A stretch of 64,000 nucleotides of DNA from Candidatus Woesearchaeota archaeon (GTDB taxonomy: Archaea > Nanobdellota > Nanobdellia > Woesearchaeales > ARS49), in contig JAWCRZ010000002.1 of NCBI GenBank assembly GCA_038868995.1, positions 24,726 through 88,725 of the forward strand, given 5' to 3'. Shown in pieces: positions 11,566-59,200 of this stretch (the first letter of the stretch is position 1; the number at the start of each line of letters is the position of its first letter). The position numbers and the translations under genes were made by a program. A model generated the notes under the pieces. That model did not search any database. It saw only the letters and a program-made list of their open reading frames with translations, and had not been told where the DNA came from.

Positions 11566-13239
11566 TCACATCTCGCTTGGAGCTTCAATGCCAAGCAAAC
11601 GCAGACCATTCTCAAGAAGCTGGCGCGATGACTCAATCAAAGTCAGGCGGGCAAGCTGGACATCCTTGTCCTTTTCCTGCGCGCACGGGCACTTGTGATA
11701 AAACTCATTGAAAGCCCTTCCAAACTCTATCAAGTATTGAGCCAGAATATGGGGCTTGTACTGGGCAACAGAATCCTTTATCGCGCACGGAAACTTGGAC
11801 ATCAGCTTAATGACGCGCTGTTCTGACGGGTCCTGCAGCAGGGAAAAATCAGCGTCCTTTGAGGGCTTGCGCTTGACTTTGCGCAATATAGAGGCGGCGC
11901 GTGCGTGCGTGTACATCAAATAAGGACCAGTGTCACCCTCAAAAGAAAGAATACGCTTGATGTCAAACACAACGTCTTTCATCCTGTCATTAAGCAGGTC
12001 GCCGAAAAAAATCGCGCCAACAGCAACCTTTCTGGAAACCTCTTCCTTGTTTTTAAGTTCCGGATTCTTTTCCTCAATTGTTTTTCTTGCAAGCGCAATG
12101 GTTTCAGACAAAACATCCTCCATAAAGACAGTTTTGCCCTCTCGTGTTGACATCTTGCCACCTTCAGAAGTCAGGTACAGGCCATGTGGAACATGAACAA
12201 AATTCTGCTTATGTCCAAGAAGTCGCATTAGGTCAAACAGCTGCCTGAAATGCAATGACTGCTCATGGCCGACAACATACAGAATAGTGTCAAATTTCAG
12301 AACTTCAATTCTGTCAAGCAGGGTTGCCACATCTCGGCTGGCATAAGTAGTGCTTTCATTGCTCTTCTTCAACATCATAGGCATCTCATAACCCTTCAAG
12401 CGAACAATCAAGGCGCCCTTGTCAACCTCTGCAAGGCCTTTTTTCTTTATTAGCTCAATCGCCGCATCAACTTTTGGAGCATAATACGCCTCGCCGTTAT
12501 AGTCGTCAAATTCGACTCCGAGAATCTCATAAATTTTCCTGAACTCGTCCAGAGAATGATGCTTGAACTTGCTCCACAAGGAGAGCGCTTCCTGGTCTCC
12601 CTTTTCCAGCTTCGCAAACCACTCGCGCGCGTAATCAAGAATTTTCTCATTCTTCTCAGCGTGCTCGTTGAACTTGACATACAATTCAACCAAGTGCTTG
12701 ATGGGGCAGATGTCCATCTGCTTCTTGTCGCCCCACTGCAGATAAGCATAGATTAATTTTCCAAACTGAGTGCCCCAGTCGCCCAGATAATTCAGACGGA
12801 TGACTTTGTAGCCAACAAAAGAATGCAGACGGGCAAGCGACTCACCGACAACCGTGCTGCGAAGATGGCCAAAATGCATCGGCTTGCCAATGTTGGGAGA
12901 GGAGTATTCAACCGCGACAACTTTGCCAGCACCCTCATTCGAACTGCCGAACAGCAACTGCCGGTCAAGAATCTCTGAAATAACCGCCTTTGCAACTTTT
13001 GCAGAGTCGAGAAAAAAATTGACATACGGGCCCGTAGCAGTGATTTTTGACACAATGCCGGGCATTGGAATGGACTTTGCAAGAGAATTTGCAATTTCAG
13101 CAGGGCTTTTCTTCATTGATTTTGCCAATTGGAAACATGGAAAAGCATAATCTCCCAAAGACGGGTCTGGAGGGACTTCAAGAACTATGTCACCCTTCAC
13201 CTGCTTTTGCAGCGCCTTGATGATTTCCTTCTCAAACAT
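11566..13239 (-). CDS. argS: arginyl-tRNA synthetase
   Basis: Class I HIGH-type motif SSPNIGKPMHFGHLRS, KMSK-region equivalent GGKMSTREGK, DALRY-type anticodon-binding C-terminus. Start placed at MFEKEII, 14 codons inside the six-frame ORF. Confidence 0.9.
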   Translation of the reverse strand: MFEKEIIKALQKQVKGDIVLEVPPDPSLGDYAFPCFQLAKSMKKSPAEIANSLAKSIPMPGIVSKITATGPYVNFFLDSAKVAKAVISEILDRQLLFGSSNEGAGKVVAVEYSSPNIGKPMHFGHLRSTVVGESLARLHSFVGYKVIRLNYLGDWGTQFGKLIYAYLQWGDKKQMDICPIKHLVELYVKFNEHAEKNEKILDYAREWFAKLEKGDQEALSLWSKFKHHSLDEFRKIYEILGVEFDDYNGEAYYAPKVDAAIELIKKKGLAEVDKGALIVRLKGYEMPMMLKKSNESTTYASRDVATLLDRIEVLKFDTILYVVGHEQSLHFRQLFDLMRLLGHKQNFVHVPHGLYLTSEGGKMSTREGKTVFMEDVLSETIALARKTIEEKNPELKNKEEVSRKVAVGAIFFGDLLNDRMKDVVFDIKRILSFEGDTGPYLMYTHARAASILRKVKRKPSKDADFSLLQDPSEQRVIKLMSKFPCAIKDSVAQYKPHILAQYLIEFGRAFNEFYHKCPCAQEKDKDVQLARLTLIESSRQLLENGLRLLGIEAPSEM

Positions 13240-13448
13240 ACAAAGAATGGATAAACGGCAATTTATAAAAGTTCTGCACAAACGGTTCCATCAAATTAAA
13301 TGACAATGTTGCCGTTGCTCAGGTTCCAGGGACTGATTTTCCCCACGTAAGTTGAGAAGCCTAAGGCAAGCTTGGGCAAAGCGGCTTAGACACAAAACTT
13401 GACAGCACCTGCACAAATGATTTATACTTCAATATATTTTCTGCCGGT

Positions 13449-15350: not shown

Positions 15351-17552
15351 GTGGCAAAAGAGGGAGCAAAGAAGTTAGTGTTTGCTGGCTTGATTCTTGT
15401 TATAGCTCTTTCTGTGGTTTTTGTGTGGCAGAATGATGCGCCGAAGTATGTTGTTCTGACAGGTCTTCAGGTGTATGAGCCGGCTGTCTTGGGAATTACG
15501 AATGTTTCTCCAGGTTTTGTACATCAGGCAGCCACGGTTCAGTTGAATGTTACCGGTACTGGTTTTAATTCGAGCGCTGTTTTGTTTTTTTCAAATCCTG
15601 ATATTTCTGTTCTTTCTCTTGTCGTTGTTAATTCCACTCTTGTTGAAGTTAATGTTTCTGTTGCGATTAATGTCTCTCCTGGATTTTATGATGTAACAAT
15701 TAATCAGATAACTGATGAATCAACTTTGCCTGCTGCATTGGAAGTTCTTGAGGGGCCTTTTGATGTTTCAACGCTGACTAATGTAACTCCTGATGATGGT
15801 TATATTAATACAAGTGAGACGTTGAATCTTACGTATAATATTACGACTGCTTCGGGTGTTGATAAGTCAAGTGTGAACGTGATAGGTGGTTGGATTAATA
15901 TTACTAATTTGAACACGTCCAACTGGACTGTTCTGAATATGACGAGTGCTATCGACCCTGAGGGCACGTTTACTGTTCAGTTTGAAGAGCACACGTTCAT
16001 AGAAGAGGGTTATTATTTGGGCGAGATGTATCTTGACTTGGAAGTTGATGGTGAGTATGTCGAGCGGGAGTATTATGTGTATTTTGGTGTTGGTGATATT
16101 ATTATTTTTAGTTTCTGTGGTGATTTCATTATTGAGCCGTTTTTTGGCGAGGAGTGTGACCCGGCCGGCGCTGCATGTGGCATTTGTACGGATAATGGCC
16201 AGCCGTGTGTTCCAGGTGGTGATACTGGTCTTTGTGCCGACCCGTTTGATCCTGATGTTTGCGTGCCTACTGGTGATGTGTGCGACCCGGTTTGTAAGTG
16301 CCAGCCGTTGTGCACTGAGCCGGAGTTTGTTTCATTTGACTGTACTGAGAATGCGCAGTTTGAATGCCCGTTGTCTGTTCCTCCTTTAACGCTTTGTTCG
16401 TTTGGAAATGCTGTTCTGTGTTGCGGTGGAATTGATGCTTTTAGCAACCCGTTCACTCCAAGCTATAATTTTGGCCCGTGCTCTCCGTTTGATGTATTTT
16501 CTGGTGGTTGTGAGACGGCAAGTTTGAACGTTGAGGGTTGTGATGAAACTTGTGTGAAAGTAACTGTGTGTGGTGATGATATTGTTGAGGGTGCCGAGCA
16601 GTGTGACCCTCCTGGTTCTGATTGCACGGCTCCATTTAGTGGCACGTGTGAAATTGATTGTCAGTGCCCTGGAGGCGTAATTGCTGATTCCGTGGGCATT
16701 TCAGCCGGGCAGCCGGAGCCGGAAATAGACCCGAACCTTGTTGTTGTTCTTCCGATTGGAAAGAAGTGTTGTACTGCTTTGCCGACTCCCAGTCCGACGC
16801 CTCCTCCTTTAGTTGGAGGCGGTGGTGGTGGCGGTGGTGGCAGGCCGTGTTATTTTGAAGTTATTGATATTTCTTCCGATGGCAAATCCACCACTATTCA
16901 TTTTGCCTCAAAGCCTAATTGTCCTTTGACAGTCTCGCTTGGCGGGCGTACGTTCAACGTAATAAAGCAGGATATTACGGTTACTGTTCCTTTCTATCCT
17001 GGTCCTAATGTTCCTGTTTTCGTTAATGGAAGGAAAATCGGAGAAACGCCCGAGGTTGTTCCTAAAGTTGAGATTCCCGCGCCTGTTCCAATGCCTGCTG
17101 CTCCTCCGTTCGTGACGCCTCCGAAGAAGGCGTGTCCGGAAGCTGCTTGTGTGCCGTTGCCTTATGGAATGGGGGTCCGTGATGATGTGTTGAGCGTAGC
17201 ATTTGGTGTTGATGTTGTTCCTTGTTCGCAGATTGATGTGACTGTTCTTGATTTGCTGGCATTGGTTGGCGATGCATCTGACAAGGCGCGATACGAACTG
17301 GTTAAAAGGTGCTGTCCGTGCCCGGTGATTGAGTATCCTGCTGCGCCGTGTCCGGCTTCGCGGTGTGAAAAAACTCTGAGCGGTGAACTTGGAGTTCGTG
17401 ATAGCTTGCTTAGTGCCCTGCATGGTGTGGCTGTTGTGCCGTGTTCTGTTATCGACATTTATGCTCTTGATTTGCTGGCATTGACTGGTGACGCTTCTGA
17501 CAAGGCTCGTTATCAGGCTGTAAATGCTTGCTGTCCGAAGCCCTGTCCGTAG
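15351..17552 (+). CDS. secreted/surface cysteine-rich glycoprotein (733 aa): N-terminal TM/signal, IPT/TIG-like domain, extremely N-glycosylation-sequon-dense region, Myxococcus-type Cys-rich repeat modules, Gly9 run, C-terminal tandem ~65-aa Cys repeats
   Basis: GTG start. Hydrophobic N-terminus. ITNVSPGF..VQLNVTGTGFNSS..VEVNVSV..NVSPGFYDVTI (IPT/TIG pattern). About 14 N-x-S/T sequons within ~150 aa. EECDPAGAACGICTDNGQPC and EQCDPPGSDCTAPFSGTCEIDC (TIGR02232-like). PTPSPTPPP linker plus GGGGGGGGG. Two C-terminal repeats ...VRDD/SLLSxxxGVxVVPCSxIDxxxLDLLALxGDASDKARY. Confidence 0.75.
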   Translation: MAKEGAKKLVFAGLILVIALSVVFVWQNDAPKYVVLTGLQVYEPAVLGITNVSPGFVHQAATVQLNVTGTGFNSSAVLFFSNPDISVLSLVVVNSTLVEVNVSVAINVSPGFYDVTINQITDESTLPAALEVLEGPFDVSTLTNVTPDDGYINTSETLNLTYNITTASGVDKSSVNVIGGWINITNLNTSNWTVLNMTSAIDPEGTFTVQFEEHTFIEEGYYLGEMYLDLEVDGEYVEREYYVYFGVGDIIIFSFCGDFIIEPFFGEECDPAGAACGICTDNGQPCVPGGDTGLCADPFDPDVCVPTGDVCDPVCKCQPLCTEPEFVSFDCTENAQFECPLSVPPLTLCSFGNAVLCCGGIDAFSNPFTPSYNFGPCSPFDVFSGGCETASLNVEGCDETCVKVTVCGDDIVEGAEQCDPPGSDCTAPFSGTCEIDCQCPGGVIADSVGISAGQPEPEIDPNLVVVLPIGKKCCTALPTPSPTPPPLVGGGGGGGGGRPCYFEVIDISSDGKSTTIHFASKPNCPLTVSLGGRTFNVIKQDITVTVPFYPGPNVPVFVNGRKIGETPEVVPKVEIPAPVPMPAAPPFVTPPKKACPEAACVPLPYGMGVRDDVLSVAFGVDVVPCSQIDVTVLDLLALVGDASDKARYELVKRCCPCPVIEYPAAPCPASRCEKTLSGELGVRDSLLSALHGVAVVPCSVIDIYALDLLALTGDASDKARYQAVNACCPKPCP

Positions 17553-17603: not shown

Positions 17604-18497
17604 ATGCTGAAATTGGAGCTTTCTGATGTTGTAAGAAAGGCAGCGATGGGCTTAGGTCTTGGAGTGCTCTTTTCTCAGGTAGACCCACAAGCGGTTGCCG
17701 CGCCTTCGGCTACTCATTCTCAGGACAGCGAAAAGCAGGATGAAAAGAAGCCTTACAAGAACAAGATAACTTACGAGCAAGCTAAGAAAGGTAGCAAAAA
17801 GACAAAGCGCGATTATATTATTGGAAAGATGTACGAGATGGGCATTCTGTATCACAAAGACCATTGCCCTGATGGTCATGTGGGTGACGTGTTTGATTTT
17901 GATGATAAATCTGATAAGAAAAGATTAGAGAAAAGGTTGGATGAAGAGTTAAAGTTTAATCCAGCATTATATAAGGCTGGTTTTGAAGAAGCGCGCGAGA
18001 GCAAATTAGCGTATCATTGCCGGGATCCTCCTGGCCAAAATGAAAGACTGCCATTTATCGTATTCTATTTGGAAGAAATATTTCCAGCAAAAGGCGAGGC
18101 AACTTCAGAAGATGAAATCACAAGCCGGCTAAGATATCTTAAGGCCAGTACTGAATATTTCAATACGGCAATATTTTTCGGGAAAAAGATGCCGCTTGCA
18201 AATGCCAGTATGAAGTTTCGGAGAGATACTGTGGGTTCTCTCTATGCCGGTTATGCACAACTTTCTAAGATAATTGACAATACGGATAAAGTGTCGGATG
18301 CTACAAGGCAGGATGTGCTGGAAAGATACTTGCACAATTATTACAACTGCATGAGGTGCTTTGAAATCAGAGAAGATGAAACGGTGCAAGAATTCGTAAA
18401 GCATGTTGTTGATAATATTAATTCAGGCATGAGGCAGCTCGGTTATGTTCACAAGTACGATGAAATAAAAAAAGAGTGGTCTTTGGAAAAAGAATAA
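17604..18497 (+). CDS. hypothetical (probably secreted) protein, 297 aa
   Basis: Strong SD-like aaggtggt 8 nt upstream. N-terminal hydrophobic segment AAMGLGLGVLF...AVAAPSA. Lys/Glu-rich. No family recognised. Confidence 0.6.
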   Translation: MLKLELSDVVRKAAMGLGLGVLFSQVDPQAVAAPSATHSQDSEKQDEKKPYKNKITYEQAKKGSKKTKRDYIIGKMYEMGILYHKDHCPDGHVGDVFDFDDKSDKKRLEKRLDEELKFNPALYKAGFEEARESKLAYHCRDPPGQNERLPFIVFYLEEIFPAKGEATSEDEITSRLRYLKASTEYFNTAIFFGKKMPLANASMKFRRDTVGSLYAGYAQLSKIIDNTDKVSDATRQDVLERYLHNYYNCMRCFEIREDETVQEFVKHVVDNINSGMRQLGYVHKYDEIKKEWSLEKE

Positions 18498-18546
18498 TGT
18501 TTAAATAGTAGTCTTTCTGATTTCCCTCTTAAAAGAGGGAATTTTG

Positions 18547-21500
18547 ATGAATCGCTTAATAAGTGGGCTTTCAGTTTTATTGGTTATAGCCCTTGGACTG
18601 AACGTCTTTCTTTACGAAGCCAGGGCTCAAGCGTCTCAATCACCTGTTGGTTATGAGAGGTATATTCCGGCCGTTTCTGCTCTTTGCCCCACTGTGGTTA
18701 TGGAGTGTGCCAAGGACAAGCCAGGCGTAAAGTCCGAGGAAATCAAGAAGCTGAAGCTTCTTGAGCTTATAAAGACTGGCAAGATGGCTCCAGGAACCGG
18801 TGGCACTTTGCTTGAAAAAGACATTCCTACCGATACTTTGGAATGTGATGATCCTAAGTGGGAAGAGTGGTGTAAATCAGGGCAAGCGAGCGCGACGGCA
18901 AATACTTTATGTGAAAAGCGCAAGGAGTGCTGTGGTGTCTGCCTGAAGAAACCAGAAGCAGTATTTTCTCCGCTGATCCGACAGGAATTCCTGAAGAAAG
19001 TGAAACCTGGTGCCACAATGCTGCAAGAGGATATTCCTGGTGACAAGCTCGCATGCGATGATAAGCGCTGGGGTGATTTATGCAAGCCAGGCAGTTATAC
19101 GTCAGCATATCTGTGCCAGTTGCTGGAAAGGTGTTGTATGCCCGCTGTTTGTACGAAAGAGCCTCCAGGTGTCCAATCTAAAGATATCAAAGATAGGCTG
19201 ATGACTGAAAAAGGAATTAAGCCTGGAATGACAGTGCCTGCTGCCGACGTACCAAGCGATATTCTGACATGCGCTGATAAAAAATGGGATGAATGGTGTA
19301 AGAATCCAGAGGATCCTTTGTGTAAAAAGCGAAGCGAATGTTGTGTTGACTGCATCAAAAATCCTGATGGTGTGATGTCTCCTGAAATATCAAAAGTTCA
19401 GTTTGAGGCGCGTCCATTCGGAACAGTGCCTGCTTCTACCGCAGCGCGTAAAATTCTTTTATGTGATGCTCCTGAGTGGGGTCCATTGTGTAATCCCAAT
19501 AATCAGAAATACGACAAGGATAACCCTCTTACGAAACTTCTTTGTCCTGCAAAAGAAAGATGTTGTCCGCTAACAGTAGAACCAGCCAAACAGCCAGGTG
19601 GGCTACCAAAGCCTTCGTTGGATGAAGAATGGAGTTGTGTATCTGTTGATAGAGCTGGCGAGAAAGGAGCTGGCAAGGAAAAATTAGTCATTAAACACAA
19701 AAATATACCTTTGGGAGCTGGGCAATATTTAGAAATGGAGCCTACGTGCGATTCTGCAAAACAGACACGCGACGCTTTGAGCAAAACTCCAGTATTTGGT
19801 TTTGCTGAAGCTGCGAACATTGCCAGATTGCTTGGTGAGATTGACGTTGCAATTGCCAAATGCTGCCCAGTGCAAACATGTCCTCCTACAGCGCAGGAAA
19901 AGCTTCCTAACGGCGCTCCGAATCCGTGCATGGATGCGAAGAAACGTGTGCCGATTGTGCATTTCGAGTTCGGCGGTAAGAAAAAGCTGAATCCTTGCTG
20001 TGACCCCCAGACGTGTATGCCACAGGTTGGTGTTTGCGGCTGTTGCAGCATGGATGCCAAGGGAAACCCTACTGGCACGTTCCTGCAGGGAAGGCATGCA
20101 AGTGGTCTTGTTGATATATTTGACCAGAACGGGAACATGGTTGGCAAGACAGATTGTTGTCCCGGCTCTGCTTGTCGCATTACTTTTACAACAATTTCTG
20201 AAAAAGCGTGCGTGAGAAACAAGTGTATTTGTGATATAGACAGCTTCCAGATTACCGGGCCGCCAATTCAAAGACCTATTCCAGGTGGGTTTATTATACA
20301 TGCATTTCAAGGTGTGCCTGTGAGGGATGTTTCAGACCAATTCTATGGAAGAAACATGTGGGGTTTGGCTCGTCCCAACAAGGCTGCTACGTGCAATGAT
20401 CAGGTCGCGTATGATCCGTTTGTAACAAAGAAAAATTGGAAGGAGGCTGTTGCCGCTTGCAATCCTTCTCCTCCAGGCGTGCAGCCGTGTCCACCTTGGA
20501 TTGCAGCCTTGTTCCCTAAGCTGTGCGGTCTTCCTGTTGGTCCTGGTCCTGATGTAAATCCAACCTCTGTGCCTGAGAATGGTCACTCAGTTGTAATCGT
20601 TGACTATCCTCCGCCTATCGAGGGCCCAACAAGCACTACCACGCAGACTTTTGGCAACGTGCAGCAGGTGAATGTTGCTCCGCCGTTGAACAATAAGGTT
20701 GCGTGTGCTGTTGCTGTTGGTCCTGGCAGGATTTCTGTTGCTCCTGAAGTGCAAGCACCTGCTGGTTGTACTCCTGTTATGTCTTTCTCGTGCTCTGGAG
20801 ACCAATTGCAGGCTGGTCTTATGGTTCCTGCTGATGTTATGGTGACTGGCGCGTATGTTGTGAAAAATGGCCGGTCAAGTCCGGTGCCAGTAAGCCATAC
20901 TTCTGGTCCTACCTGCGGCAGTATTTCATTGACCGATATTCGTTCCAATCAGATTGCGAATGCTGCGCCGTCTTCTTATAGTCCTGAGAAATTCACTCCG
21001 ATTGTAAGGCGTGAGCGTGCTATCACGCACGCTGATGTTGACAAGTCTCTGTCTACAGAGGGTGCAGACATAATTAAGATTGAATTGTTGGAGCCTTCTG
21101 ATGTTACAGTTACAATTGATAATGTTGACCGCGTGTTGCCTGCTCCGGAAAACCCGAGCTTGCGCTTGTTCAAGCCATTCAAGGTTTTATTCGCGCCTGA
21201 ATACAAGAATGGTATTCAGGTAACTGGCAAGTTGAACGTGCCGTTGTACATTGACCGTTCTTCTGTTGGCTTGTATGCTTTGGCGGGTGATTCTTGGTTC
21301 CCGATTCTTACTGGTCGTGAGGATAATTCGTATGTTGCAATTATTAATGATTTGAGGCCTTATATGACTGATAATCAGGTAACTTTTGCTTGGATGGGTG
21401 CGCATTGCCCAACCTGCCCTTCTGAAAAGCTTGAGTTGGTCTATGATGGTGGCGGCAGTGTGGCTGTTGTGTTTGTTCATGGTCTCACAAATGACAGGAC

Positions 21501-22617
21501 TCGCTTCCAGCCGGTTATTGACAGGGCGATTGTGACTAAAGCGCCGTATAAGCTTTACACTTTCAGTTATCAGTTTGATAAGTCTGTGGAGAGTGTTGCG
21601 CAGGAGTTTGCACGCCAGCTTAATGTGAATAGTGCTGAATGGTCTCGTGCGTATATCGTGTCTCATTCTGTTGGTGGTCCTTTGTCCCAGCTTGCTGTTA
21701 ATCACGCGCGCAATAATGGTTATTCTGTTGCTGGCAAGGTGCGTAAGCTTATTATGGCTGGTCAGCCGGGATTGGGTAGCCCTATTGCTGTTTACTTGAA
21801 GCTTTTGTCATGGCTCCCCACACAGAATAGCATTGCTACGCTTTTCGGCACTGATACGCCTTTCTATAGTTTGGCTGTTAATGGCTTGCAGGTAAATCAG
21901 AATCCTGGCACTGAGCCGGTAGTTATTGTGGGTACAAAGGAATTATTGCTCACTCAGGCTGATTTTGTTGAGGCGAATGATGGTGTTGTAGCTGGTACGA
22001 GCGCTGCACGCGTTCACAATCGTGATTTGAGCGCTGAACGGTGCAGCAATTATTTTGAGGTTTATGAAAATCATCTTGAGCTTATCTGGGCGCCTGGCAG
22101 TGTGTGGACTGTGTGGCACGTTATTGCTGAGGATGTTGCCACTCCTGATGCTCGTGTTGTTGAAGTTCAGGACGTTAGCCTTGGCGTTGTTGACTGCAAG
22201 CAGGGCGATGTTATCGTTTTGTGCGGAGAGCGGGTTTCGCAGGAGGCAGCGTTTGATGCTACTATGTGCAAGTGTGGCAATGGTGTTTGTGGCGTTGGTG
22301 AGAATTCTGATAATTGTCCTGCTGATTGTCCGACCGAGTACGCGTTCCTCTACTTGTGCAGGCTTTCGCCGTATGTTGTTTATCCTCTGCTTGTTATCTT
22401 CCTGCTCATCACGTCATTGTTTTCCTATAATGCAATCAAGCGTCATGAGCGCTCGAAGAACCTTACCAAGTTGTTCGTAATTGCGTTTGTGTTGCTTGGC
22501 CTTGTTGGATTGGCGAATTTAATCTGTGGTGTGCCGATGGTTATGGCTTACGTGATTAGCGGTTTCAGCATTATTCTTTTAATTCTGGCGCGCGCGCATG
22601 GCAGGCCCATTTATTAG
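18547..22617 (+). CDS. giant surface protein (~1356 aa): signal peptide, 4x tandem novel Cys module, central region, lipase-like alpha/beta-hydrolase domain, CGNGxCGxGE..CPxDC module, C-terminal 3-4 TM helices
   Basis: Signal MNRLISGLSVLLVIALGLNVFLYEARAQA. Repeats LECDDPKWEEWC / LACDDKRWGDLC / LTCADKKWDEWC / LLCDAPEWGPLC, each followed by LC...CC..C. VAVVFVHGLTNDRT...YIVSHSVGGPLSQ (HG oxyanion element plus GxSxG-like HSVGG). CKCGNGVCGVGENSDNCPADCP. Hydrophobic C-terminus. Confidence 0.8.
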   Translation: MNRLISGLSVLLVIALGLNVFLYEARAQASQSPVGYERYIPAVSALCPTVVMECAKDKPGVKSEEIKKLKLLELIKTGKMAPGTGGTLLEKDIPTDTLECDDPKWEEWCKSGQASATANTLCEKRKECCGVCLKKPEAVFSPLIRQEFLKKVKPGATMLQEDIPGDKLACDDKRWGDLCKPGSYTSAYLCQLLERCCMPAVCTKEPPGVQSKDIKDRLMTEKGIKPGMTVPAADVPSDILTCADKKWDEWCKNPEDPLCKKRSECCVDCIKNPDGVMSPEISKVQFEARPFGTVPASTAARKILLCDAPEWGPLCNPNNQKYDKDNPLTKLLCPAKERCCPLTVEPAKQPGGLPKPSLDEEWSCVSVDRAGEKGAGKEKLVIKHKNIPLGAGQYLEMEPTCDSAKQTRDALSKTPVFGFAEAANIARLLGEIDVAIAKCCPVQTCPPTAQEKLPNGAPNPCMDAKKRVPIVHFEFGGKKKLNPCCDPQTCMPQVGVCGCCSMDAKGNPTGTFLQGRHASGLVDIFDQNGNMVGKTDCCPGSACRITFTTISEKACVRNKCICDIDSFQITGPPIQRPIPGGFIIHAFQGVPVRDVSDQFYGRNMWGLARPNKAATCNDQVAYDPFVTKKNWKEAVAACNPSPPGVQPCPPWIAALFPKLCGLPVGPGPDVNPTSVPENGHSVVIVDYPPPIEGPTSTTTQTFGNVQQVNVAPPLNNKVACAVAVGPGRISVAPEVQAPAGCTPVMSFSCSGDQLQAGLMVPADVMVTGAYVVKNGRSSPVPVSHTSGPTCGSISLTDIRSNQIANAAPSSYSPEKFTPIVRRERAITHADVDKSLSTEGADIIKIELLEPSDVTVTIDNVDRVLPAPENPSLRLFKPFKVLFAPEYKNGIQVTGKLNVPLYIDRSSVGLYALAGDSWFPILTGREDNSYVAIINDLRPYMTDNQVTFAWMGAHCPTCPSEKLELVYDGGGSVAVVFVHGLTNDRTRFQPVIDRAIVTKAPYKLYTFSYQFDKSVESVAQEFARQLNVNSAEWSRAYIVSHSVGGPLSQLAVNHARNNGYSVAGKVRKLIMAGQPGLGSPIAVYLKLLSWLPTQNSIATLFGTDTPFYSLAVNGLQVNQNPGTEPVVIVGTKELLLTQADFVEANDGVVAGTSAARVHNRDLSAERCSNYFEVYENHLELIWAPGSVWTVWHVIAEDVATPDARVVEVQDVSLGVVDCKQGDVIVLCGERVSQEAAFDATMCKCGNGVCGVGENSDNCPADCPTEYAFLYLCRLSPYVVYPLLVIFLLITSLFSYNAIKRHERSKNLTKLFVIAFVLLGLVGLANLICGVPMVMAYVISGFSIILLILARAHGRPIY

Positions 22618-23130: not shown

Positions 23131-23502
23131 TTAAAATCCAAAATACGCGTCAAGCGAATAGGCGCCTGCTCCCAAAAGCGCCAGTGCAAGGGCAACAATG
23201 GCGAGAATGAACGGGTATTCATATCCGAATTTTTCCTTGCCGATAAAGACGTCGTTCCATTTGAATTTGTGGAAGTAGAGCGCGCCGAGCATGTTTACAA
23301 AGAGTGCAAGTCCTGCAATCTGCGTTAAAAATCCAAGCAGGATTCCAAGCCCGCCGAAAAATTCTGCAATTGCAACAAGCGGGCTTAAAAAGCCGGTTGT
23401 TTCTTTCATTCCCATAGGGTTCTTTATTTTCGGCCAGCCGTGCATTATGAATATGATGCCAAGCCCGATTCTGAGCAGTAACAATGCAAAATCCTCGTAC
23501 AT
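23131..23502 (-). CDS. DoxX-family membrane protein, paralog A
   Basis: LLLRIGLGIIFIMHGWPKI... with 4 TM helices, typical DoxX. Confidence 0.75.
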   Translation of the reverse strand: MYEDFALLLLRIGLGIIFIMHGWPKIKNPMGMKETTGFLSPLVAIAEFFGGLGILLGFLTQIAGLALFVNMLGALYFHKFKWNDVFIGKEKFGYEYPFILAIVALALALLGAGAYSLDAYFGF

Positions 23503-24722: not shown

Positions 24723-25103
24723 ATGAACAAGCAAGCTCTGGGGCTGTTAATGCTTCGCATCGGATTGGGCGGTGTCTTTTTATGGTTTGGCACGGATAAG
24801 TTTATTCATCCTGATATCTGGGTGAATTATATTCCTCAGTGGTTTCCGATGCCGGTCTCAACCGCAATATTTATCTTCTTGCTCGGTATTGCAGAGTCTA
24901 TTATGGGTGCCGCGGTATTGGCGGGCTTTTTCACGCGCGCTGCAGCAACTACGGCAGCATTGATGCTCATCCCGATCATAATTTCATTGGGTTATAACGA
25001 GATTGGCATCCGTGATTTCGGCTTGTTTATGCTCGCCGTGGGAATAGTTTTCCTTGGCGCGGGCGAATTCAGTGTTGATAAATTGCGAGGTGGTAAATTA
25101 TGA
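24723..25103 (+). CDS. DoxX-family membrane protein, paralog B
   Basis: LLMLRIGLGGVFLWFGTDKF... with 4 TM helices. Divergent from paralog A across the tRNA locus. Confidence 0.75.
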   Translation: MNKQALGLLMLRIGLGGVFLWFGTDKFIHPDIWVNYIPQWFPMPVSTAIFIFLLGIAESIMGAAVLAGFFTRAAATTAALMLIPIIISLGYNEIGIRDFGLFMLAVGIVFLGAGEFSVDKLRGGKL

Positions 25104-25534
25104 AAAAACTGTTTGTATTGATTGCCTTGCTGGCAATATTGGTTGCGTGCGCTCCAGAGCAGCCGGTGCAGCCGCAGGTGCAGGTTGAGCCGCAGGCGCA
25201 GTTCAGGGTTAATCCGCCTGAACAAAAAGTTGAGGCAGTCGAGCCGCCTGCAAGGGTTGGAACAGCGCCTTCAGAGCCAAAGACGGTGAATGTTGACATT
25301 GTGAACTTTGCGTATGTTCCTGCTTCAGTGAAAATCAGGGTTGGCGACACTGTGACGTGGAAACAGGTTGACCGGATTAAGCACACCGTGACCATCGTTT
25401 CAGGTCCTGAATCGTTTGATTCCGGTCTTTTATCAGCCGGTCAGACGTTCAGCCATACTTTCACAAAGCCGGGAACGTATGTTTATAAGTGCACGCCTCA
25501 TCCGAGAATGACTGGCGAGATTGTTGTAGAATAA
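25100..25534 (+). CDS. cupredoxin (plastocyanin/halocyanin-like type-1 blue copper protein), lipoprotein-type signal
   Basis: Lipobox LAILVAC. Copper-ligand spacing ...IKHTVT...YKCTPHPRMTGEIVV (His ... Cys-x2-His-x2-Met). ATGA overlap with the upstream DoxX gene. Confidence 0.75.
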   Translation: MKKLFVLIALLAILVACAPEQPVQPQVQVEPQAQFRVNPPEQKVEAVEPPARVGTAPSEPKTVNVDIVNFAYVPASVKIRVGDTVTWKQVDRIKHTVTIVSGPESFDSGLLSAGQTFSHTFTKPGTYVYKCTPHPRMTGEIVVE

Positions 25535-25565: not shown

Positions 25566-26006
25566 ATGGCATTCCACATTTCTCGCTGGCGTTATTGGTG
25601 GGCGTATCTTGTTGTTATTTTGCTTGTGCTGTATGCCATCTGGCTTACTGACCGTGCTGCCGATGTTGCTTCCTGGATTGTTGGCTCTGTTGCATTTGTT
25701 TTGTTTGTAATTATGGAGGTAATGATAAGACGCCGGCGTGTAATTATTAATGATGCGGTTGAAATAATCAGCGGGAATGTGCGCACGCGTGTTGATTTCA
25801 AAAAAATTGCCGGGGTTTCAGTGCAGCAGTCGGTTCTGCAGAATCTTTTGCGATATGGCACTGTAATCATCAAGCTGCCTGGAGAGGAGATTGTTCTTGC
25901 CGGCTTTGCAGAGCCGAACAGGATTAAGAGGCAGGTTGACAGCCATTTGCATGTAGTGCACGAAAAGCATCCGCATTATTCGCAAAAACCGCGTGTCGGG
26001 CCGTGA
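25566..26006 (+). CDS. membrane-anchored bacterial-PH-domain protein (bPH_2/YdbS-like)
   Basis: Two N-terminal TM helices followed by a ~80-aa segment with the bPH_2 pattern (...VEIISGNVRTRVDFKKIAGVSVQQSVLQNLLRYGTVII...). Confidence 0.55.
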   Translation: MAFHISRWRYWWAYLVVILLVLYAIWLTDRAADVASWIVGSVAFVLFVIMEVMIRRRRVIINDAVEIISGNVRTRVDFKKIAGVSVQQSVLQNLLRYGTVIIKLPGEEIVLAGFAEPNRIKRQVDSHLHVVHEKHPHYSQKPRVGP

Positions 26007-30957: not shown

Positions 30958-32274
30958 ATGAAATGGTTGTTTTTTTTGTTGGTGTTGAGCGTTGGTGTCA
31001 GCGCGGTTGTTAATGGTAATGATTTGCCAGTGAATCTTAATAAGATTGAATGCTCTCAATGGATTACGGGAACTACAGGGCTGAATCCTAATTATCTTCA
31101 GTATTTCTTGGAGAAGCGTCTTATTTTGTTTGGCAGTGAAGATTTAATTTTCCCTATTATAAATGCTGTTGCGTGTGACGCCACTGTCAACAGGCATTTT
31201 TTCGAGGTTAATGGTATTTTTGCAAATTGTGGTCCTGTTGAGGAGGGAAGTACGTATTTCCCTGATAACCCTTGCGCGTGTACTTTGACGAGTTCTTTGT
31301 CCCTTGAAGGCAACGATCCCAATTTGCTTGTCCATTTGACCAAGGAGGACAGGGAGATTATTCTTCCTAATGCTTGGGCTAGATTAAAAGTCGCGATGGA
31401 TTGCCTTATTGAAAATTATTCGCCTGAAGACGATGAGCCGGTGATTGTTGGTTCTGCCACTTGGTTTAATGATGTAAAGCCCTGTTATGTGAGTGCTATT
31501 AATATCTTGGGAATGTTGGAGAATATTTACAGCCGTACTCCTGAAGCGTTTTTCCTTGTGCAGAAATTGCAGGAGCTTGAGGTCGAGCTGATGCACAAGC
31601 TTGCTTTAGAGGACCAGAAGGCCAAGGCTGCTTGGATAGTTCTTCCGAACACATGCAATGTGTTTCCCATCAATGCTCATACTTCCGAAGGCATTTTGAA
31701 GAAGAACATATTCCTGAGTCCTAATGCGGCTATGACTTTCTGGAATGCTGTTTGGGGAAACTGTGGAGGAATAGGAAATTCTTTTGTTCAGTCGCAGATG
31801 GAGTGTTTTGAGCAGCATAAGATTGATATTTTGAATAATGCTTTGAAAGTTGTCTGCGACCCGCTTGATGGAGAAGAAGGTGATATTGAGGAAGTGTTCT
31901 TTTTGAGCCCGTTATTGTTAGGCAATTGTAATAACGCTGTAACAGACATGGAATGCCGGTGCAAGGATGCCTTTATCTCAGCCGCGTTGAATATTGACCA
32001 GTGCTTTAGTGATGGCGACTGTCCTGGTGGTGGTATAGATACAGATGCTGCAAGCTTGAACAGTATTAACACTTTGCAAAGTAATGGCTGCTTGCAATGC
32101 CTGGAAAGAAGTAATGCGCACGGTGGTGGTACGACATTTACTGGTTCTGGAAGTAGCGACTCGCCTACCGGCGCTTTTGCTTTTAGAGCTTCTGGGAATG
32201 GCGGCGCTTTTGCTTTGGTCTTGGCTGCTGCGTTGTTGTTTGCAGCATTGTTATTCATTTTGAGAAAGCGCTGA
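30958..32274 (+). CDS. secreted protein with C-terminal TM anchor and basic tail (439 aa)
   Basis: SD-like gaggtga upstream of the ATG. Signal MKWLFFLLVLSVGVSA. Many Cys residues. C-terminus ...GNGGAFALVLAAALLFAALLFILRKR (a PGF-CTERM/archaeosortase-like tripartite tail). Confidence 0.65.
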   Translation: MKWLFFLLVLSVGVSAVVNGNDLPVNLNKIECSQWITGTTGLNPNYLQYFLEKRLILFGSEDLIFPIINAVACDATVNRHFFEVNGIFANCGPVEEGSTYFPDNPCACTLTSSLSLEGNDPNLLVHLTKEDREIILPNAWARLKVAMDCLIENYSPEDDEPVIVGSATWFNDVKPCYVSAINILGMLENIYSRTPEAFFLVQKLQELEVELMHKLALEDQKAKAAWIVLPNTCNVFPINAHTSEGILKKNIFLSPNAAMTFWNAVWGNCGGIGNSFVQSQMECFEQHKIDILNNALKVVCDPLDGEEGDIEEVFFLSPLLLGNCNNAVTDMECRCKDAFISAALNIDQCFSDGDCPGGGIDTDAASLNSINTLQSNGCLQCLERSNAHGGGTTFTGSGSSDSPTGAFAFRASGNGGAFALVLAAALLFAALLFILRKR

Positions 32275-35200
32275 TTTTCTTTTTTCAAGTTCTTTTTTCA
32301 GTTCTTCATTTTTGATTTTATCGCACAGTTCTATCCAATCTTCGTATAATGCATGAATTAATGGTTCATCTATTTGTTTTAGAAGGTTTTCCGCTTCTTG
32401 GTATAATTCCATTGCTTTTTGATAATCTTTGGTGTGCACGTATGTTCTTCCCAGTCCAAAACGCGCGGTTCCTCTTAGCTCTGTATGCCTTAATCTGTCG
32501 GCTATTTTTATGGCTTTTTCTGCTGCTTGTTTTGCTTGTAGGATTTCTCCTTTTTTAATCAGTGCATCGGCAAGATTGTTGTAAGCCAGTCCTAAAATGT
32601 AGCTGTCTCCGAGTGGTTCTGATAAAGCAATGGCTTCTTGTATTGTTTTTATTTTTTCTTCTCCTTTGAATTCCATTCCTGCGTTTACTTTGATAAGGCT
32701 TTCCAAATATTTGTTGCCTGTTTTTTTTGCAAGCACAACACCTGCTTCGTAATGAGGTTTTGACTTTTCTAAATCATTCAAATAAAGTAAAAAGGAGTTT
32801 ACGTGTAGTTTCAGCTGCAATTCATCTTTCAAACTTTCTGGCAGTTCATTTGAAATCTGAAATCCTGCTTCAAATGCTTGCAGTGCTTTTTGGTTTTTTC
32901 TTAAGCGTTGGTACGCAAGTCCTTTCGCGTTTTGCGCCAGCCCGTATATGTATTTGTGTTGTGTTGTCGGTGTTGTTATTTTGTTTATTCTTTGTTCAAG
33001 TTTTTCTCCATATGTTAATCCTGTTTTGTTTTGTTGGTTGTCCGTGAACCATTTTTGCGCTTTCCAGAGGTATTCTGTTGCTTTGTCGTCGTCATCTCCG
33101 TGTTCGTAGTCCCATGCGAGTGCTGTCAGTTGGTCTTCTCCGTCTCCGTATAGTTTTTTTCTGCTGTCGCCTATTTTTGTATGCGCCCGCGCCCTTGGTA
33201 TCGGCCTTATTGCTGTTTCGTATATTGCGTTTTTGACAAGGTTGTGCTTGAATTCTATTGTTCCGTTGTGTGTTCTTAGAAAGTCGGCTTTTTCCAGCGC
33301 GTGTATTGCATGGTCGATTTCTCCTTGTGCTTTGCCGAGTGCTTCTTCAAGCAGTCGTTTTGGGAATGTTTCTCCGAACATGCACGCTGCGTACTGCAGC
33401 ACTTCCTGTTGTTCCGGCTCTTTGATTTGTCTGTACCTTTCGAGCACGAGTTTTTCTATGCTGTCAGGTATGGTTATCTCGGCTGTTTTTATGAGCGTGC
33501 CGTTTTGTATGAACTGGTTGTTTAGGAGGTAGTTTACCACTTCTTCTATGTACAGCGGTATTCCTTTGCTTTGCTGGAGGACGAACCGGGCGAGTTTCTC
33601 GTCCGGGACTGCATTAATAAGGTGTTCTGTGAGTTGTGTTGTGCCTTGTTCGCTGAGTTCTCCGAGTTCTATTTTTTCCCCTGTTAGTATCTGTTCCGCT
33701 ATTTCCCTGAATTCTTTGTCTTTTGTTTTTTCTCTTGGCCTGTAGTTGGTGAGAATTCGCGCTTGCGGTAGTTGTTCGTGGAGCCATTGTATTGTTTGCA
33801 AGCTTTTTTCGTCTGCCCAGTGTATGTCGTTGAATATGAGCAAACTTTTTTCCTGTCCGATTAGCTCCAGCAGGAGTTTTCTCCTGGCTTCTTCGAGTTG
33901 TTTTCCTGTCTGGACTGGTTTTTCATAGCTGAGTCCGAGCCAGTGGTGGGCTATTCTTCTGTTTTCTTCATCTGTTATTTTTTCAAGTTTTTTTCTTGTT
34001 TCCGGGTCTGCTGTTGTTATGCCTAAAGCGTTTCTTACAAGGTCCTGGAGCAGGTATTCTGGAGTGTCTTTTGCCTGTTGTGCTGCTGATGCTCTGTAGA
34101 CGTTTTTGTTGATGTTTTGTATGTAGATTTCTTCTGTTTTTTTGGTCAGCTCTGTTTTTCCGTATCCCGCGTCTGCTATGATGTGCGCTATTTTTGATTC
34201 CTGGTTGATTATTTCTGTTAGTTTTTTTATCTCATTATCTCTGCCTACGAGCGTCTTCTTGGTTGCCCGTTTGGTTAGCCCTTTCGCCGGCTTTATTGGC
34301 CTGTAGACAGCTACCGGCTCTTCTATGCCTTTGAAGGGCATTTTGCCGATGTATTCCGCTCCTTCCGGTATTGTCATCAGCACCTGTTCATCGTCATCTA
34401 TTGCTTTTTTCATGAGCCGCGCTGCAAGGTTGACGTGATTGCCAAGCATTGTGAACGTTCTTCTTTGCCTTGTGCCTAGTGGCCCGACGTATACTTCACC
34501 GTGTGCCACTCCGATTCTGGGGCTTTTGTATTCGAGTTCTGCTTCTTCCAATAGTTCTTTTAGGTGTTCGTTTTGCCTTAGCCATTTGTCGAGCTGTACT
34601 GCTGTTTCTCTTGCTGCTTCGTAATGCTCGTGTTTTTCTCCTGCGTAGTCCACCCTGCTTCTGAAGCGCGCTATGAAGACCGTGCGGTACAGCTTGTCAA
34701 TTTCTCCGTTGAATTGTTTTTCAAGCTCTCTTAGTGTTTCAAAGTGTGTTTGGTATGCCTCGGTCAGTTTTTGCGGGTCTTCTTCGTGGTGTCTTGCCAA
34801 GCTCCTTAGCGTTGGGAGGTATCCGAACATGAGTGTTGCGTGTTCCATGCCTCCTGTTGTTTGGGTGAAGATTATTTCTCTTGTAAGTGGCGGGAAGAAT
34901 CCAAGCAGGTGCTTTATGCGAGCTTCGAGTTTTGGTATTTGTTCTTCATACCATTTTTTGTTTTCCGGGTGTTGTAGTGGCTGCGGTTGTTTTGTCGTTA
35001 CGCAAACGGGTGCTTCTTGGCTCAACTCGTATGTGTGTTCTGCAACCCGTCTGAATTGCAAAGACGGATCTTCAATGATTTGTCTCGTTGTTTCGTCAAT
35101 CCAGATTTTTCCCGGCTTTGATTCCTCCTCAAGTTTGTATGCGTGCTCCAGCGCTGGCCCTCCTACGACGTTTATTCTGCGCTGTCCGTCTTCCACCACG

Positions 35201-35628
35201 CCTGAGAATATGGTTCCTGTTGCCATGCCTTGCCTCACGCTGAGCTTTATTTCTTTCTTGTTGGCTGTTTCTTCCGGCAGGGCGAGTATTTCGCGCGCTA
35301 TTTCAGCCGCTCCATAGACCGCATTTGTGGGGTTTTTGAATACCGCCACTCCCGCGTCACCCTCGTAATACTTTATTGTACCTTCATATTGGTTTTCGAG
35401 CAGGTCGAAGATTGTGTATATCTCTCCTATTCTGTTTGTCCATGCGTCTGTCGCCATTTTTCCTTCCTGTAGTTTTCTTTGAGTTATTTCTGTGAATCCT
35501 TTGAGGTCGCTTTTCCAGACGGTTCTTTTGTTTACTCTTGCAGGTTCGTCTATGTCTTTTGGAAGGAAGCTTTCAAGGTAGCGTGCATTCCGAAGTAGTT
35601 TTTCATATTTTTGTTGGATGTCTTCCAT
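32251..35628 (-). CDS. multidomain signalling protein: tandem class-III nucleotidyl (adenylate/guanylate) cyclase homology domains, STAND/AAA+ P-loop NTPase and TPR repeats (1125 aa)
   Basis: Cyclase domain 1: DLKGFTEIT...YEGDAGVAVF...VRQGMATGTIFSGVV...INVVGGPALEHAYKLEEESKPGKIWIDETT. Cyclase domain 2: PRIGVAHGEVYVGPLGTRQRRTFTMLGNHVNLAARLMKKA...VLMTIPE. Walker A IIADAGYGKTELTKK. C-terminal TPR-like helices (LAYNNLADALIKKGEILQAKQAAEKAI...). Confidence 0.75.
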   Translation of the reverse strand: MEDIQQKYEKLLRNARYLESFLPKDIDEPARVNKRTVWKSDLKGFTEITQRKLQEGKMATDAWTNRIGEIYTIFDLLENQYEGTIKYYEGDAGVAVFKNPTNAVYGAAEIAREILALPEETANKKEIKLSVRQGMATGTIFSGVVEDGQRRINVVGGPALEHAYKLEEESKPGKIWIDETTRQIIEDPSLQFRRVAEHTYELSQEAPVCVTTKQPQPLQHPENKKWYEEQIPKLEARIKHLLGFFPPLTREIIFTQTTGGMEHATLMFGYLPTLRSLARHHEEDPQKLTEAYQTHFETLRELEKQFNGEIDKLYRTVFIARFRSRVDYAGEKHEHYEAARETAVQLDKWLRQNEHLKELLEEAELEYKSPRIGVAHGEVYVGPLGTRQRRTFTMLGNHVNLAARLMKKAIDDDEQVLMTIPEGAEYIGKMPFKGIEEPVAVYRPIKPAKGLTKRATKKTLVGRDNEIKKLTEIINQESKIAHIIADAGYGKTELTKKTEEIYIQNINKNVYRASAAQQAKDTPEYLLQDLVRNALGITTADPETRKKLEKITDEENRRIAHHWLGLSYEKPVQTGKQLEEARRKLLLELIGQEKSLLIFNDIHWADEKSLQTIQWLHEQLPQARILTNYRPREKTKDKEFREIAEQILTGEKIELGELSEQGTTQLTEHLINAVPDEKLARFVLQQSKGIPLYIEEVVNYLLNNQFIQNGTLIKTAEITIPDSIEKLVLERYRQIKEPEQQEVLQYAACMFGETFPKRLLEEALGKAQGEIDHAIHALEKADFLRTHNGTIEFKHNLVKNAIYETAIRPIPRARAHTKIGDSRKKLYGDGEDQLTALAWDYEHGDDDDKATEYLWKAQKWFTDNQQNKTGLTYGEKLEQRINKITTPTTQHKYIYGLAQNAKGLAYQRLRKNQKALQAFEAGFQISNELPESLKDELQLKLHVNSFLLYLNDLEKSKPHYEAGVVLAKKTGNKYLESLIKVNAGMEFKGEEKIKTIQEAIALSEPLGDSYILGLAYNNLADALIKKGEILQAKQAAEKAIKIADRLRHTELRGTARFGLGRTYVHTKDYQKAMELYQEAENLLKQIDEPLIHALYEDWIELCDKIKNEELKKELEKRKSALSQNE

Positions 35629-57130: not shown

Positions 57131-57550
57131 ATGTGCAGCATGAAGGCATCAGAATTGCTTGAATATTTGGGCGTTTCTTTTGTGGTTGTTCTGATTGTAG
57201 CTGCACTGAGTTTTCTGTTCAAAAGCGTGAACAATTACTTTCTGACGCGCATGGGTGGTATTCTGATAAAGATAGCGGCGGTGATTTTGGGGATTATGTT
57301 GTTGGTATGGCTTTCAGAGCTGGCACACTCTCGTGCCAAAACAGTGGCAAAATTCATTTTTTTGAAACGGCTGCTTTCGAGCGTTTGGAGCAGGCGCGTG
57401 CTGGTTGTCTGCTGGGGCGCGGTGTGCGGCGCCGGCATTTTCATATATTTCTATCCTCTAATTGCCTCATTCAGCTGGCTGACTTGGTTTTTTGCTGCTC
57501 TGCTTGTGATGTCTTTTGTTGCTTTGCAGTTGCCATTGAAAACGACTTGA
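57131..57550 (+). CDS. small membrane protein (139 aa, 4 TM)
   Basis: Hydrophobic ORF. Its 3' end overlaps the convergent GT-C gene by ~80 nt. Confidence 0.4.
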   Translation: MCSMKASELLEYLGVSFVVVLIVAALSFLFKSVNNYFLTRMGGILIKIAAVILGIMLLVWLSELAHSRAKTVAKFIFLKRLLSSVWSRRVLVVCWGAVCGAGIFIYFYPLIASFSWLTWFFAALLVMSFVALQLPLKTT

Positions 57551-58877: not shown

Positions 58878-59200
58878 TTTTGGTAGGCGTATGCGCCAAT
58901 GTATAGAAGCGCGATCGCGGCAAATTGTGCGCTGGGGTAAATGTAGAATCCAAGAACACTTGCAAAGAGGTTGGGCAGAGGCAGGAGTGCGAGGCTGAGC
59001 AGGATTGCAACTGCAATCCGCTGGATTATGTCTGCTTCTTTCAGGAGGAATATGCTGAGCGCGTAGCCGGGCAGGAACAGGTATGCAAATCCGAGCACGC
59101 TGAACCTGAATGCTTCCCAGAGGGTGAAGTTGGTGAGAGAGAGGAGCAGGGTAATTCCTGCTATAATTCCTGCAATGGTGAGTGCTGTTCGCGTGTTCAT
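58874..59200 (-). CDS. small membrane protein (108 aa, 3-4 TM)
   Basis: ORF between two GT-C genes with start/stop overlaps on both sides. Confidence 0.45.
   Translation of the reverse strand: MNTRTALTIAGIIAGITLLLSLTNFTLWEAFRFSVLGFAYLFLPGYALSIFLLKEADIIQRIAVAILLSLALLPLPNLFASVLGFYIYPSAQFAAIALLYIGAYAYQK

Follow-up and report, generated by a model that had tools for sequence, protein, structure and literature searches.

What are the tandem cysteine-rich repeats at the N-terminus of a putative archaeal surface hydrolase, and what might they do there? The question is raised by a stretch of 64,000 nucleotides (nt) from a Candidatus Woesearchaeota archaeon (contig JAWCRZ010000002.1, positions 24,726 to 88,725; hereafter the window). 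In it a gene on the + strand, running over 18547..22617 from its ATG and with a TTG start at 18544, is predicted to encode a secreted, C-terminally membrane-anchored and Cys-rich alpha/beta-hydrolase. The protein is 1356 amino acids (aa) long from ATG 18547 and 1357 aa from TTG 18544, and residues are numbered here from the TTG codon, as in an earlier note on this DNA that had described the repeats. The product of this open reading frame (ORF) is 100% identical to NCBI MEM3154118.1, 'alpha/beta hydrolase [Candidatus Woesearchaeota archaeon]', and its surroundings, with ArgRS, ribosomal protein S17e, Alba, FttA/aCPSF1, a ProRS of archaeal type and tRNA-Pro, are in keeping with an archaeal chromosome.

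Four homologous cysteine units in tandem

Our results show that aa 59-349 (nt 18718..19590) consist of four consecutive homologous units of 77, 70, 67 and 77 aa, all encoded on the + strand. Unit 1 (18718..18948, aa 59-135) carries six Cys (C101, C110, C123, C129, C130 and C133), as does unit 2 (18949..19158, aa 136-205; C171, C180, C191, C197, C198 and C203) and unit 3 (19159..19359, aa 206-272; C243, C252, C260, C266, C267 and C270), the shortest and best-modelled of the four. Unit 4 (19360..19590, aa 273-349) has five (C307, C316, C334, C340 and C341) and is the most divergent, lacking both the DIPxD motif and the sixth Cys; the next Cys along the chain is the conserved C365. The four consecutive repeats that had been placed at residues ~58-345 are hence real, and the region given for them, 18715-19580, does match aa 58-345, with an exact ORF translation and exact quoted peptides. 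The 5-Cys pattern that had been ascribed to every unit applies to unit 4 alone.

The full signature of the module reads GVxSxEI ... DIPxDxL-x-C-[DA]-[DA]-x2-W-x2-[WL]-C-x7-17-L-C-x5-CC-x2-4-C. Each unit starts with [KEN]-P-x-G-V-x-S-x-E-I-[KS] and continues into a Pro/Gly-rich loop holding a conserved Thr, and its second half is x-C1-[DA]-[DA]-x2-W-x2-[WL]-C2, then 7-17 variable residues, then L-C3-x5-C4-C5-x2/4-C6. In units 1-3 this gives a Cys spacing of C-x8-C-x7..12-C-x5-CC-x2/4-C. In the four units and in the orthologues' copies of them, no variation is seen at V, S and I of GVxSxEI, a Thr, L-x-C1, W, C2, L-C3 and CC. Three elements of the earlier description hold for part of the set. The mid-unit motif D-[IV]-P-x-D-x-L, expected in each repeat, is found in units 1-3 and missing from unit 4; the CC-x2-C ending is that of units 1 and 3, while unit 2 reads CC-x4-C and unit 4 stops short of the last Cys; and the Trp described as invariant is kept in all four units and in their orthologous copies but is Leu in one degenerate unit of the distant orthologue P0003 (see below).

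Comparison of the units with one another by blastp yielded 26-62 bits at 27-42% identity, and Smith-Waterman scores stood at z = 6.7-20.8 over 2000 composition-preserving shuffles, of which 0-1 reached the observed score. When Cys was masked, units 1, 2 and 3 still scored z = 10.6-13.7 against one another, demonstrating that they share more than a Cys pattern; unit 4 became marginal against unit 1 (z = 1.3) and was still related to unit 2 (z = 4.9). No nucleotide-level tandem repeat was detected in the region at a Tandem Repeats Finder score of at least 30, which argues that the duplication is old and that the repeat exists at the protein level alone. A hidden Markov model (HMM) of the unit found it nowhere else within the 64-kb window.

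Predicted structure of the unit

AlphaFold2 was run on unit 3 with a nine-unit alignment. The resulting model has a predicted local distance difference test score (pLDDT) of 79 and a predicted template modelling score (pTM) of 0.60, and all five models lie at 77-79. The predicted order of elements is β-α-β-α-α: a strand, a helix at positions 9-19, a loop, a second strand, a short helix at 43-47 (KWDEW) and a long helix at 54-68. Mapped onto the signature, these are the strand GVxS, helix 1 (xEIKxxxL), the Pro/Gly-rich loop, strand 2 (xLxC1), a Trp-containing helix 2 closed by C2, the variable loop, and a long helix 3 bearing C3, CC and C6. In a model of all four units (pLDDT 63) the same order of elements is repeated four times.

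Comparison with known families and folds

The earlier note had held that the repeat is neither EGF, nor the TIGR02232 repeat, nor any other named Cys-repeat family, and had proposed profile searches and structure prediction as checks. Searches with hmmscan at E ≤ 10 returned 0 families from Pfam-A for eight units taken singly and 0 from NCBIfam, TIGR02232 included, for nine units. The whole protein drew a single NCBIfam match at E ≤ 1, to a lysophospholipase at 10 bits, and 0 families from PHROGs. The unit profile retrieved nothing under E = 0.9 from the sequences of the PDB. Structural comparison, for which we took Foldseek E ≤ 0.001 or a convincing template modelling (TM) score as the mark of a fold match, was equally negative for the unit model in the PDB (best E = 6, TM 0.28) and in BFVD (best E = 6.8, TM 0.18), and the four-unit model had 0 matches in the PDB. 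A literature search on Cys-rich surface modules of DPANN archaea or Woesearchaeota, and on PDB entry 7x2p (see below), turned up nothing pertinent. Taken together, the profile and sequence searches and the Foldseek comparisons with the PDB and BFVD support the view that the module is an undescribed Cys-repeat family, and the predicted model suggests that it is possibly a new small fold.

The type of module is nonetheless familiar, namely that of disulfide-rich extracellular repeat modules on surface enzymes. ShK toxin-like (ShKT), EGF-like and thrombospondin type-1 repeat (TSR) domains are small six-Cys modules that occur in tandem on secreted or membrane-anchored enzymes, where they are presumed to serve binding or spacing. 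The units recall ShKT domains in that they start with C-D and end with C-x2-C, and TSRs in their W-x2-W element. They differ from all three in the vicinal CC within C-x8-C-x7..17-C-x5-CC-x2/4-C and in a ~35-aa extra N-terminal half consisting of a strand and a helix. The ShKT domain (PF01549) comprises ~35-40 aa and six Cys arranged as C-x(6-8)-C ... C-x3-C-x2-C; in our units no residue lies between C4 and C5, where the ShKT pattern has x3, the length is double, and no ShK structure is found among the Foldseek matches of the unit model. EGF-like domains span ~40 aa around a two-stranded beta core, whereas here the Cys spacing is different and the prediction is helical, and the CGDG...E-CDDGN-type motif of TIGR02232, the Myxococcus cysteine-rich repeat, is absent from the units. 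The TSR (PF00090) is a three-stranded all-beta fold with six Cys and a W-x2-W-x2-W layer; the units have no Pfam match to it and their W-x2-[WL]-C is predicted to be helical.

Saposin-like domains deserve a separate comparison. These lipid-binding domains are helical, ~80 aa long, contain six Cys and are fused to lipases or sphingomyelinases; their fold has four or five helices with three disulfides joining the N- and C-terminal helices. The host protein of our units is likewise lipase-like, but the Cys pattern and the order of elements differ (two strands and three helices here), and neither Pfam (SapB_1/SapB_2) nor Foldseek against the PDB gave a match. Tandem autonomous modules on a cell-anchored protein are also reminiscent of cohesin scaffoldins and of carbohydrate-binding-module arrays, a parallel to the cellulosome that extends to neighbouring secreted proteins bearing a duplicated C-terminal module (see below). 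However, cohesins are ~150-aa beta-sandwiches that lack disulfides, dockerins consist of two Ca-binding EF-hands, and neither has sequence similarity to the modules described here.

Orthologues and evolution of the array

A search with the full-length protein in an index of 5.8 billion sequences returned only the protein itself and one orthologue, P0002, which is 76-77% identical to it. We then used a profile of eight units, searched exhaustively against 1.84 billion representative proteins, which recovered P0002 (340 bits, four stretches) and a more distant orthologue, P0003 (54 bits, one stretch; 50% identical). Instead of a described family, the profile thus retrieved only these two orthologue clusters and two spurious repeat proteins, P0004 and P0005, which we rejected; both are highly repetitive and eukaryote-like, without the signature, and their score is the sum of weak repeats. 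Scans of genome and metagenome contigs by full-length and by hydrolase alignment confirmed no further locus. The unit profile, built on 8-9 closely related units, is narrow and could miss very distant single-copy relatives. As far as these searches reach, the module is confined to three loci of one Woesearchaeota lineage, in the window and at loci L001 and L002.

P0002 is encoded at L001, in an independent metagenome, and has the same four units in unchanged order. Orthologous units are 56-71% identical and paralogous ones 28-45%, which shows that the four-fold duplication is old and has not been homogenised. The N-terminal region of P0003, on the other hand, holds one canonical unit and two degenerate ones, of which one carries Leu in place of the Trp and an additional Cys pair in the loop, and the other keeps only C1. 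Number and quality of the units hence vary while the C-terminal two thirds of the protein stays conserved.

Between the window and L001 the rate of nonsynonymous substitution (dN) in the array is 0.21-0.37, and that of synonymous substitution (dS) is at least 1.5 or saturated. With dN far below dS, the translated sequence is under constraint. The array is at the same time the fastest-evolving part of the protein: dN against L001 is 0.28 in the modules and 0.078 in the hydrolase, and identity to P0003 is 24% and 78%, respectively. Cys, Trp and core hydrophobic positions are strictly kept while surface positions change fast. Such rapid evolution, together with a variable number of units, is typical of outward-facing interaction or spacer modules.

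The start of the host gene

In MEM3154118.1 and in the JGI orthologue the annotated start is M53, a choice that omits 52 codons (18544..18702) and with them a signal peptide. The latter lies at 18547..18627 on the + strand (aa 2-28) and consists of a hydrophobic core followed by A-R-A before Q; a hydropathy scan gives aa 1-27 a Kyte-Doolittle value of 2.47. The N-terminal extension is conserved at the amino-acid level in L001 and is also present in P0003 and in P0009, an independent gene call that uses the long start. The codon at this start is ATG 18547 in the window and GTG in the other two loci. It is preceded by a TATA-box-like TTTAAATA (18500..18507, + strand), found upstream of the long start in the window, L001 and L002 and possibly acting as promoter, and by GAGGG (18535..18539, + strand), a Shine-Dalgarno-like element 7 nt 5' of ATG 18547 that is kept in 3/3 loci and would act in ribosome binding. 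Since the upstream codons encode a conserved signal sequence, and since a shared TTTAAATA box and GAGGG precede the long start, the deposited M53 is almost certainly wrong; most likely, the true start is ATG 18547. Antisense ORFs such as 18651..19085 and 19095..19358, which overlie this region on the minus strand, were regarded as shadows of the conserved + strand gene.

Architecture of the host protein

Between the signal peptide and the four units lies a C-x6-C cap; the units are followed, in order towards the C-terminus, by more Cys-rich sequence, ~380 aa of conserved sequence, the hydrolase, a Cys knot and membrane segments. The further Cys-rich region (19591..20253, + strand, aa 350-570) features a recurring CC-x4-C (CCPVQTC, CCDPQTC, CCPGSAC), seen at 19861..20175 (aa 440-544) as KCCPVQTCPP, PCCDPQTCMP and DCCPGSACR, two of them followed by Pro. 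A fifth, degenerate unit at aa 350-450 (T-C-D-S-A-K ... KCCPVQTCPP) was considered and rejected, with an hhalign probability of 0.3% and no domain found by the unit HMM. Vicinal CC doublets also occur in the neighbouring protein (KKCCTALP, RCCPCP, ACCPKPCP), so that the doublet recurs in surface proteins of this organism outside the four units as well, with no detectable homology to the units. The conserved stretch of ~380 aa that follows has no family match.

The putative alpha/beta-hydrolase domain (21424..22143, + strand, aa 961-1200) is weakly lipase/PGAP1-like, with HG at 979-980, a nucleophile elbow S-H-S1042-V-G, and D1146 and H1177 as candidates for the remaining positions of a putative Ser-Asp-His triad. 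HG, SHS1042VG, D1146 and H1177 are invariant in the three orthologues. As in PGAP1, DUF7379, class-3 and AHSxG-type lipases, HG, the [SA]-H-S-x-G elbow and the candidate Asp and His come in the canonical order; unlike in these hydrolases, the domain is here embedded in a Cys-rich, membrane-anchored protein of 1356 aa that is found at three loci only.

Directly before the membrane anchor lies the CKCGNGVCGVGENSDNCPADCP Cys knot (22267..22332, + strand), conserved in the orthologues with the pattern CKCGNGVCGxGENSxNCPxDCP. By eye, TIGR02232-like repeats of the CGD[GD]...E-CD type are seen in ORF 15351..17552 (aa ~255-470) and at L001 13985..15784; in the scans that we ran, neither these nor the Cys knot reached the NCBIfam or Pfam threshold. 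The C-terminal anchor itself (22342..22599, + strand, aa 1267-1352) was found by the hydropathy scan and is conserved in the orthologues. Its hydrophobic length suffices for three helices, and basic residues lie at the predicted cytoplasmic loop and tail, suggesting a three-helix topology. Given the order of signal peptide, array, hydrolase and C-terminal membrane segments, the array would form the membrane-distal tip of the protein and the esterase/lipase-like enzyme its membrane-proximal part.

Gene neighbourhood

Directly 5' of the host gene, in 3/3 loci, lies an upstream partner gene (17604..18497, + strand) for a secreted or anchored protein of 297 aa. By blastp, its product is 64% identical to L1_300 and 28% identical to L2_361 (E 1e-33), and it is kept next to the host gene even in the distant L002, where the other neighbours differ. 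The partner has no relatives outside the three loci in the 5.8-billion-protein index and no match in Pfam, NCBIfam, the PDB or PHROGs. A function as lipase foldase was considered for it and rejected, there being no match to Lipase_chap or another family.

A twin Cys module of ~68 aa per copy (17121..17546, + strand) forms the C-terminus of the secreted ORF 15351..17552 (733 aa, w_733), with the pattern C-x4-C...GVRDxLSA...C...IDxxAxDLLALxGDxxD[KR]xxYxxV[KN]xCCP. Exactly one protein with this twin module is encoded in each of the 3/3 loci, 1-3.5 kb upstream of the host gene (L001 6610..8856 and L002 4429..6549). Its carrier is an Ig-like/CGDG-repeat protein in the window (w_733) and in L001 (L1_748), and an FG-GAP protein in L002 (L2_706). 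The twin module is itself an orphan, with no Pfam or PDB match, and its profile found no loci in viral contigs. Homology to the four-fold unit, which might be supposed from the shared GV[KR][SD]... and ...[KR]xCC, was rejected at an hhalign probability of 0.5%.

The 733-aa neighbour (15351..17552, + strand) has 42 Cys, nine Gly in a row and as many as 14 N-x-S/T sequons, and the 1357-aa host protein has a single N-x-S/T sequon. Potential N-glycosylation is hence strikingly unequal between these two surface proteins encoded side by side, with 14 sequons against 1. Elsewhere in the window, a pair of genes for PMT_2-family (dolichyl-phosphate-mannose-type) glycosyltransferases, at 57471..59225 (-) and 59197..60795 (-), may bear on surface glycosylation.

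Downstream of the cluster, two DoxX-family membrane proteins (one of them also above the MauE threshold) and a plastocyanin/azurin-type cupredoxin are encoded at 23131..23502 (-), 24723..25103 (+) and 25100..25534 (+). They have possible extracytoplasmic redox functions, and the DoxX and cupredoxin genes are not conserved beside the host gene in L001 or L002. A small membrane protein with a bacterial-PH (bPH_2) domain, encoded downstream of the host gene at 25566..26006 (+) and in L002 at 12966..13370, is perhaps loosely linked to it. Further along, at 32251..35628 (-), this small genome of DPANN type encodes a protein with a STAND-like architecture for signalling: over 1125 aa, an adenylate/guanylate cyclase catalytic domain is joined to an AAA_16 ATPase and TPR repeats.

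Discussion

We favour the reading in which the units are autonomous, disulfide-stapled extracellular mini-domains that form a rigid distal array for reaching and binding, or for spacing, and we give it a probability of roughly 0.55. Each ~70-aa unit would fold independently outside the cell, stabilised by what are probably three disulfides, and the units, placed head to tail behind the signal peptide, would make up the membrane-distal end of an ectodomain of ~1230 aa. The lipase/PGAP1-like hydrolase, with its putative Ser-Asp-His triad, would sit near the membrane, held by three C-terminal helices. As a rigid and protease-resistant element, the array may touch the envelope of a host or partner cell, a particulate substrate or another surface protein, and such contact would position the hydrolase at that surface. 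By analogy, the array most likely works as Cys-rich or carbohydrate-binding repeat arrays do in other surface enzymes. The reading is supported by the export signals, by Cys, Trp and core hydrophobic positions that are kept amid a fast-changing surface, by variation in loop length and in the number of units, by the Pro/Gly linkers and by the compact model of the unit. Judged by the patterns of Cys loss, C2 would pair with C3, and C1, C4, C5 and C6 among themselves. Furthermore, the cap, the units and a conserved 'SW[SV]C' together count 26 Cys in the window protein and 16 in P0003, with each unit that lacks C6 being trailed by exactly one extra Cys; these even totals are consistent with what a fully disulfide-paired ectodomain would show.

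Several points weigh against this reading. The unit model was built on a shallow alignment, of 9 units that come from 3 proteins. The Pfam matches of the hydrolase (PGAP1, DUF7379 and Lipase_3) reach 12-17 bits where the cut-offs are 22-33, and its profile matches PDB 7x2p, a 'putative lipase' and the closest relative of solved structure, at E 2.4e-4 in the N-terminal half only. Woesearchaeota are mostly anaerobes, for which extracellular disulfides are less self-evident. Because dS is saturated, dN alone is usable and diversifying selection cannot be assessed. Lastly, a pure spacer role would not be separable from a binding role.

Could the array instead belong to the enzyme's own maturation? 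As a propeptide, intramolecular chaperone or inhibitor, it would help the hydrolase to fold or keep it inactive until removed. Reliance on an N-terminal pro-region or a dedicated foldase is common among secreted lipases and proteases, the array is N-terminal and directly behind the signal peptide, and a conserved secreted partner is encoded just upstream. Yet the array and the hydrolase are kept apart by ~600 residues belonging to other conserved domains, a pro-region built as a four-fold tandem of disulfide modules would be out of the ordinary, the number of units varies among orthologues in which the hydrolase is 78-89% conserved, and the partner has no Lipase_chap match; we consider this function unlikely. 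Metal binding, in which the six Cys of a unit would coordinate Zn, Fe-S or Cu instead of pairing, is suggested by the high Cys density, by the CxxC-like element in the CC-x2-C tail and by the nearby cupredoxin and DoxX/MauE-like genes, and small Cys-rich 'dark' domains of archaea are often read as metal sites (PMC13607799). It appears improbable for units that sit behind a signal peptide, outside the cell, and that contain no His ligands, no paired CxxC knuckles and no treble-clef pattern. Moreover, CC and C6 are separated by either x2 or x4, unit 4 and the P0003 unit do without C6, the conserved Trp/Leu hydrophobic core and the helical prediction suit a disulfide-stapled fold, and no zinc-finger or Fe-S family was matched in the Pfam and NCBIfam scans of the units.

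The neighbourhood suggests a different partner for the units, which might act as cohesin-like receptors on an anchored scaffold and bind the twin modules of anchor-less secreted proteins. Indeed, the twin module forms the C-terminus of two secreted proteins of different build (w_733/L1_748 and the FG-GAP protein L2_706), both without a C-terminal membrane segment; its once-per-locus occurrence, always upstream of the host gene, would fit such docking, and within the cluster only the host protein, which bears the repeats at its tip, is membrane-anchored. We nevertheless hold docking to be improbable as well: the case for it is one of gene linkage in two effectively independent loci, P0003 has only one clear unit, the twin module is without dockerin similarity in Pfam or the PDB, and its adjacency could be chance. 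A still bolder proposal, and a very doubtful one, is that the twin-module protein, the 300-aa partner and the anchored hydrolase with its array form one cassette, a lineage-specific DPANN surface assembly or contact system in which the units, as a new disulfide-rich fold, dock the twin modules of anchor-less surface proteins, the host envelope, or both. If true, this would be a disulfide-based analogue of cohesin-dockerin pairs that places a lipid- or ester-cleaving enzyme at the interface of symbiont and host. As to whether the repeat arose by chance, reflects low sequence complexity or is an artefact of non-coding DNA, the lack of a DNA-level repeat and the weakness of the Cys-masked match between units 1 and 4 are what could be said for it. 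We regard this as ruled out for practical purposes by the shuffle scores, by the unit order kept in an independent metagenome, by a dN far below dS, and by a structure prediction that is consistent and confident.

Under the preferred reading of a disulfide-stapled distal array, the finding bears on how these archaea may meet other cells. Orphan Cys-rich repeats are not surprising in themselves in such genomes, and the family is known from three loci. DPANN archaea, however, depend on other cells, which makes their large, Cys-rich, unannotated surface proteins prime candidates for contact, and almost no modules of such proteins have been defined so far. One such module is now delimited by its boundaries, its signature and its predicted secondary structure, and a mis-called start that hid the signal peptide has been corrected. 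Its sequence context would place it at the outer end of a lipase-like enzyme anchored to the surface, within a conserved three-gene neighbourhood. It may thus provide a useful seed for a new domain family, as well as a concrete construct for structure and binding work.

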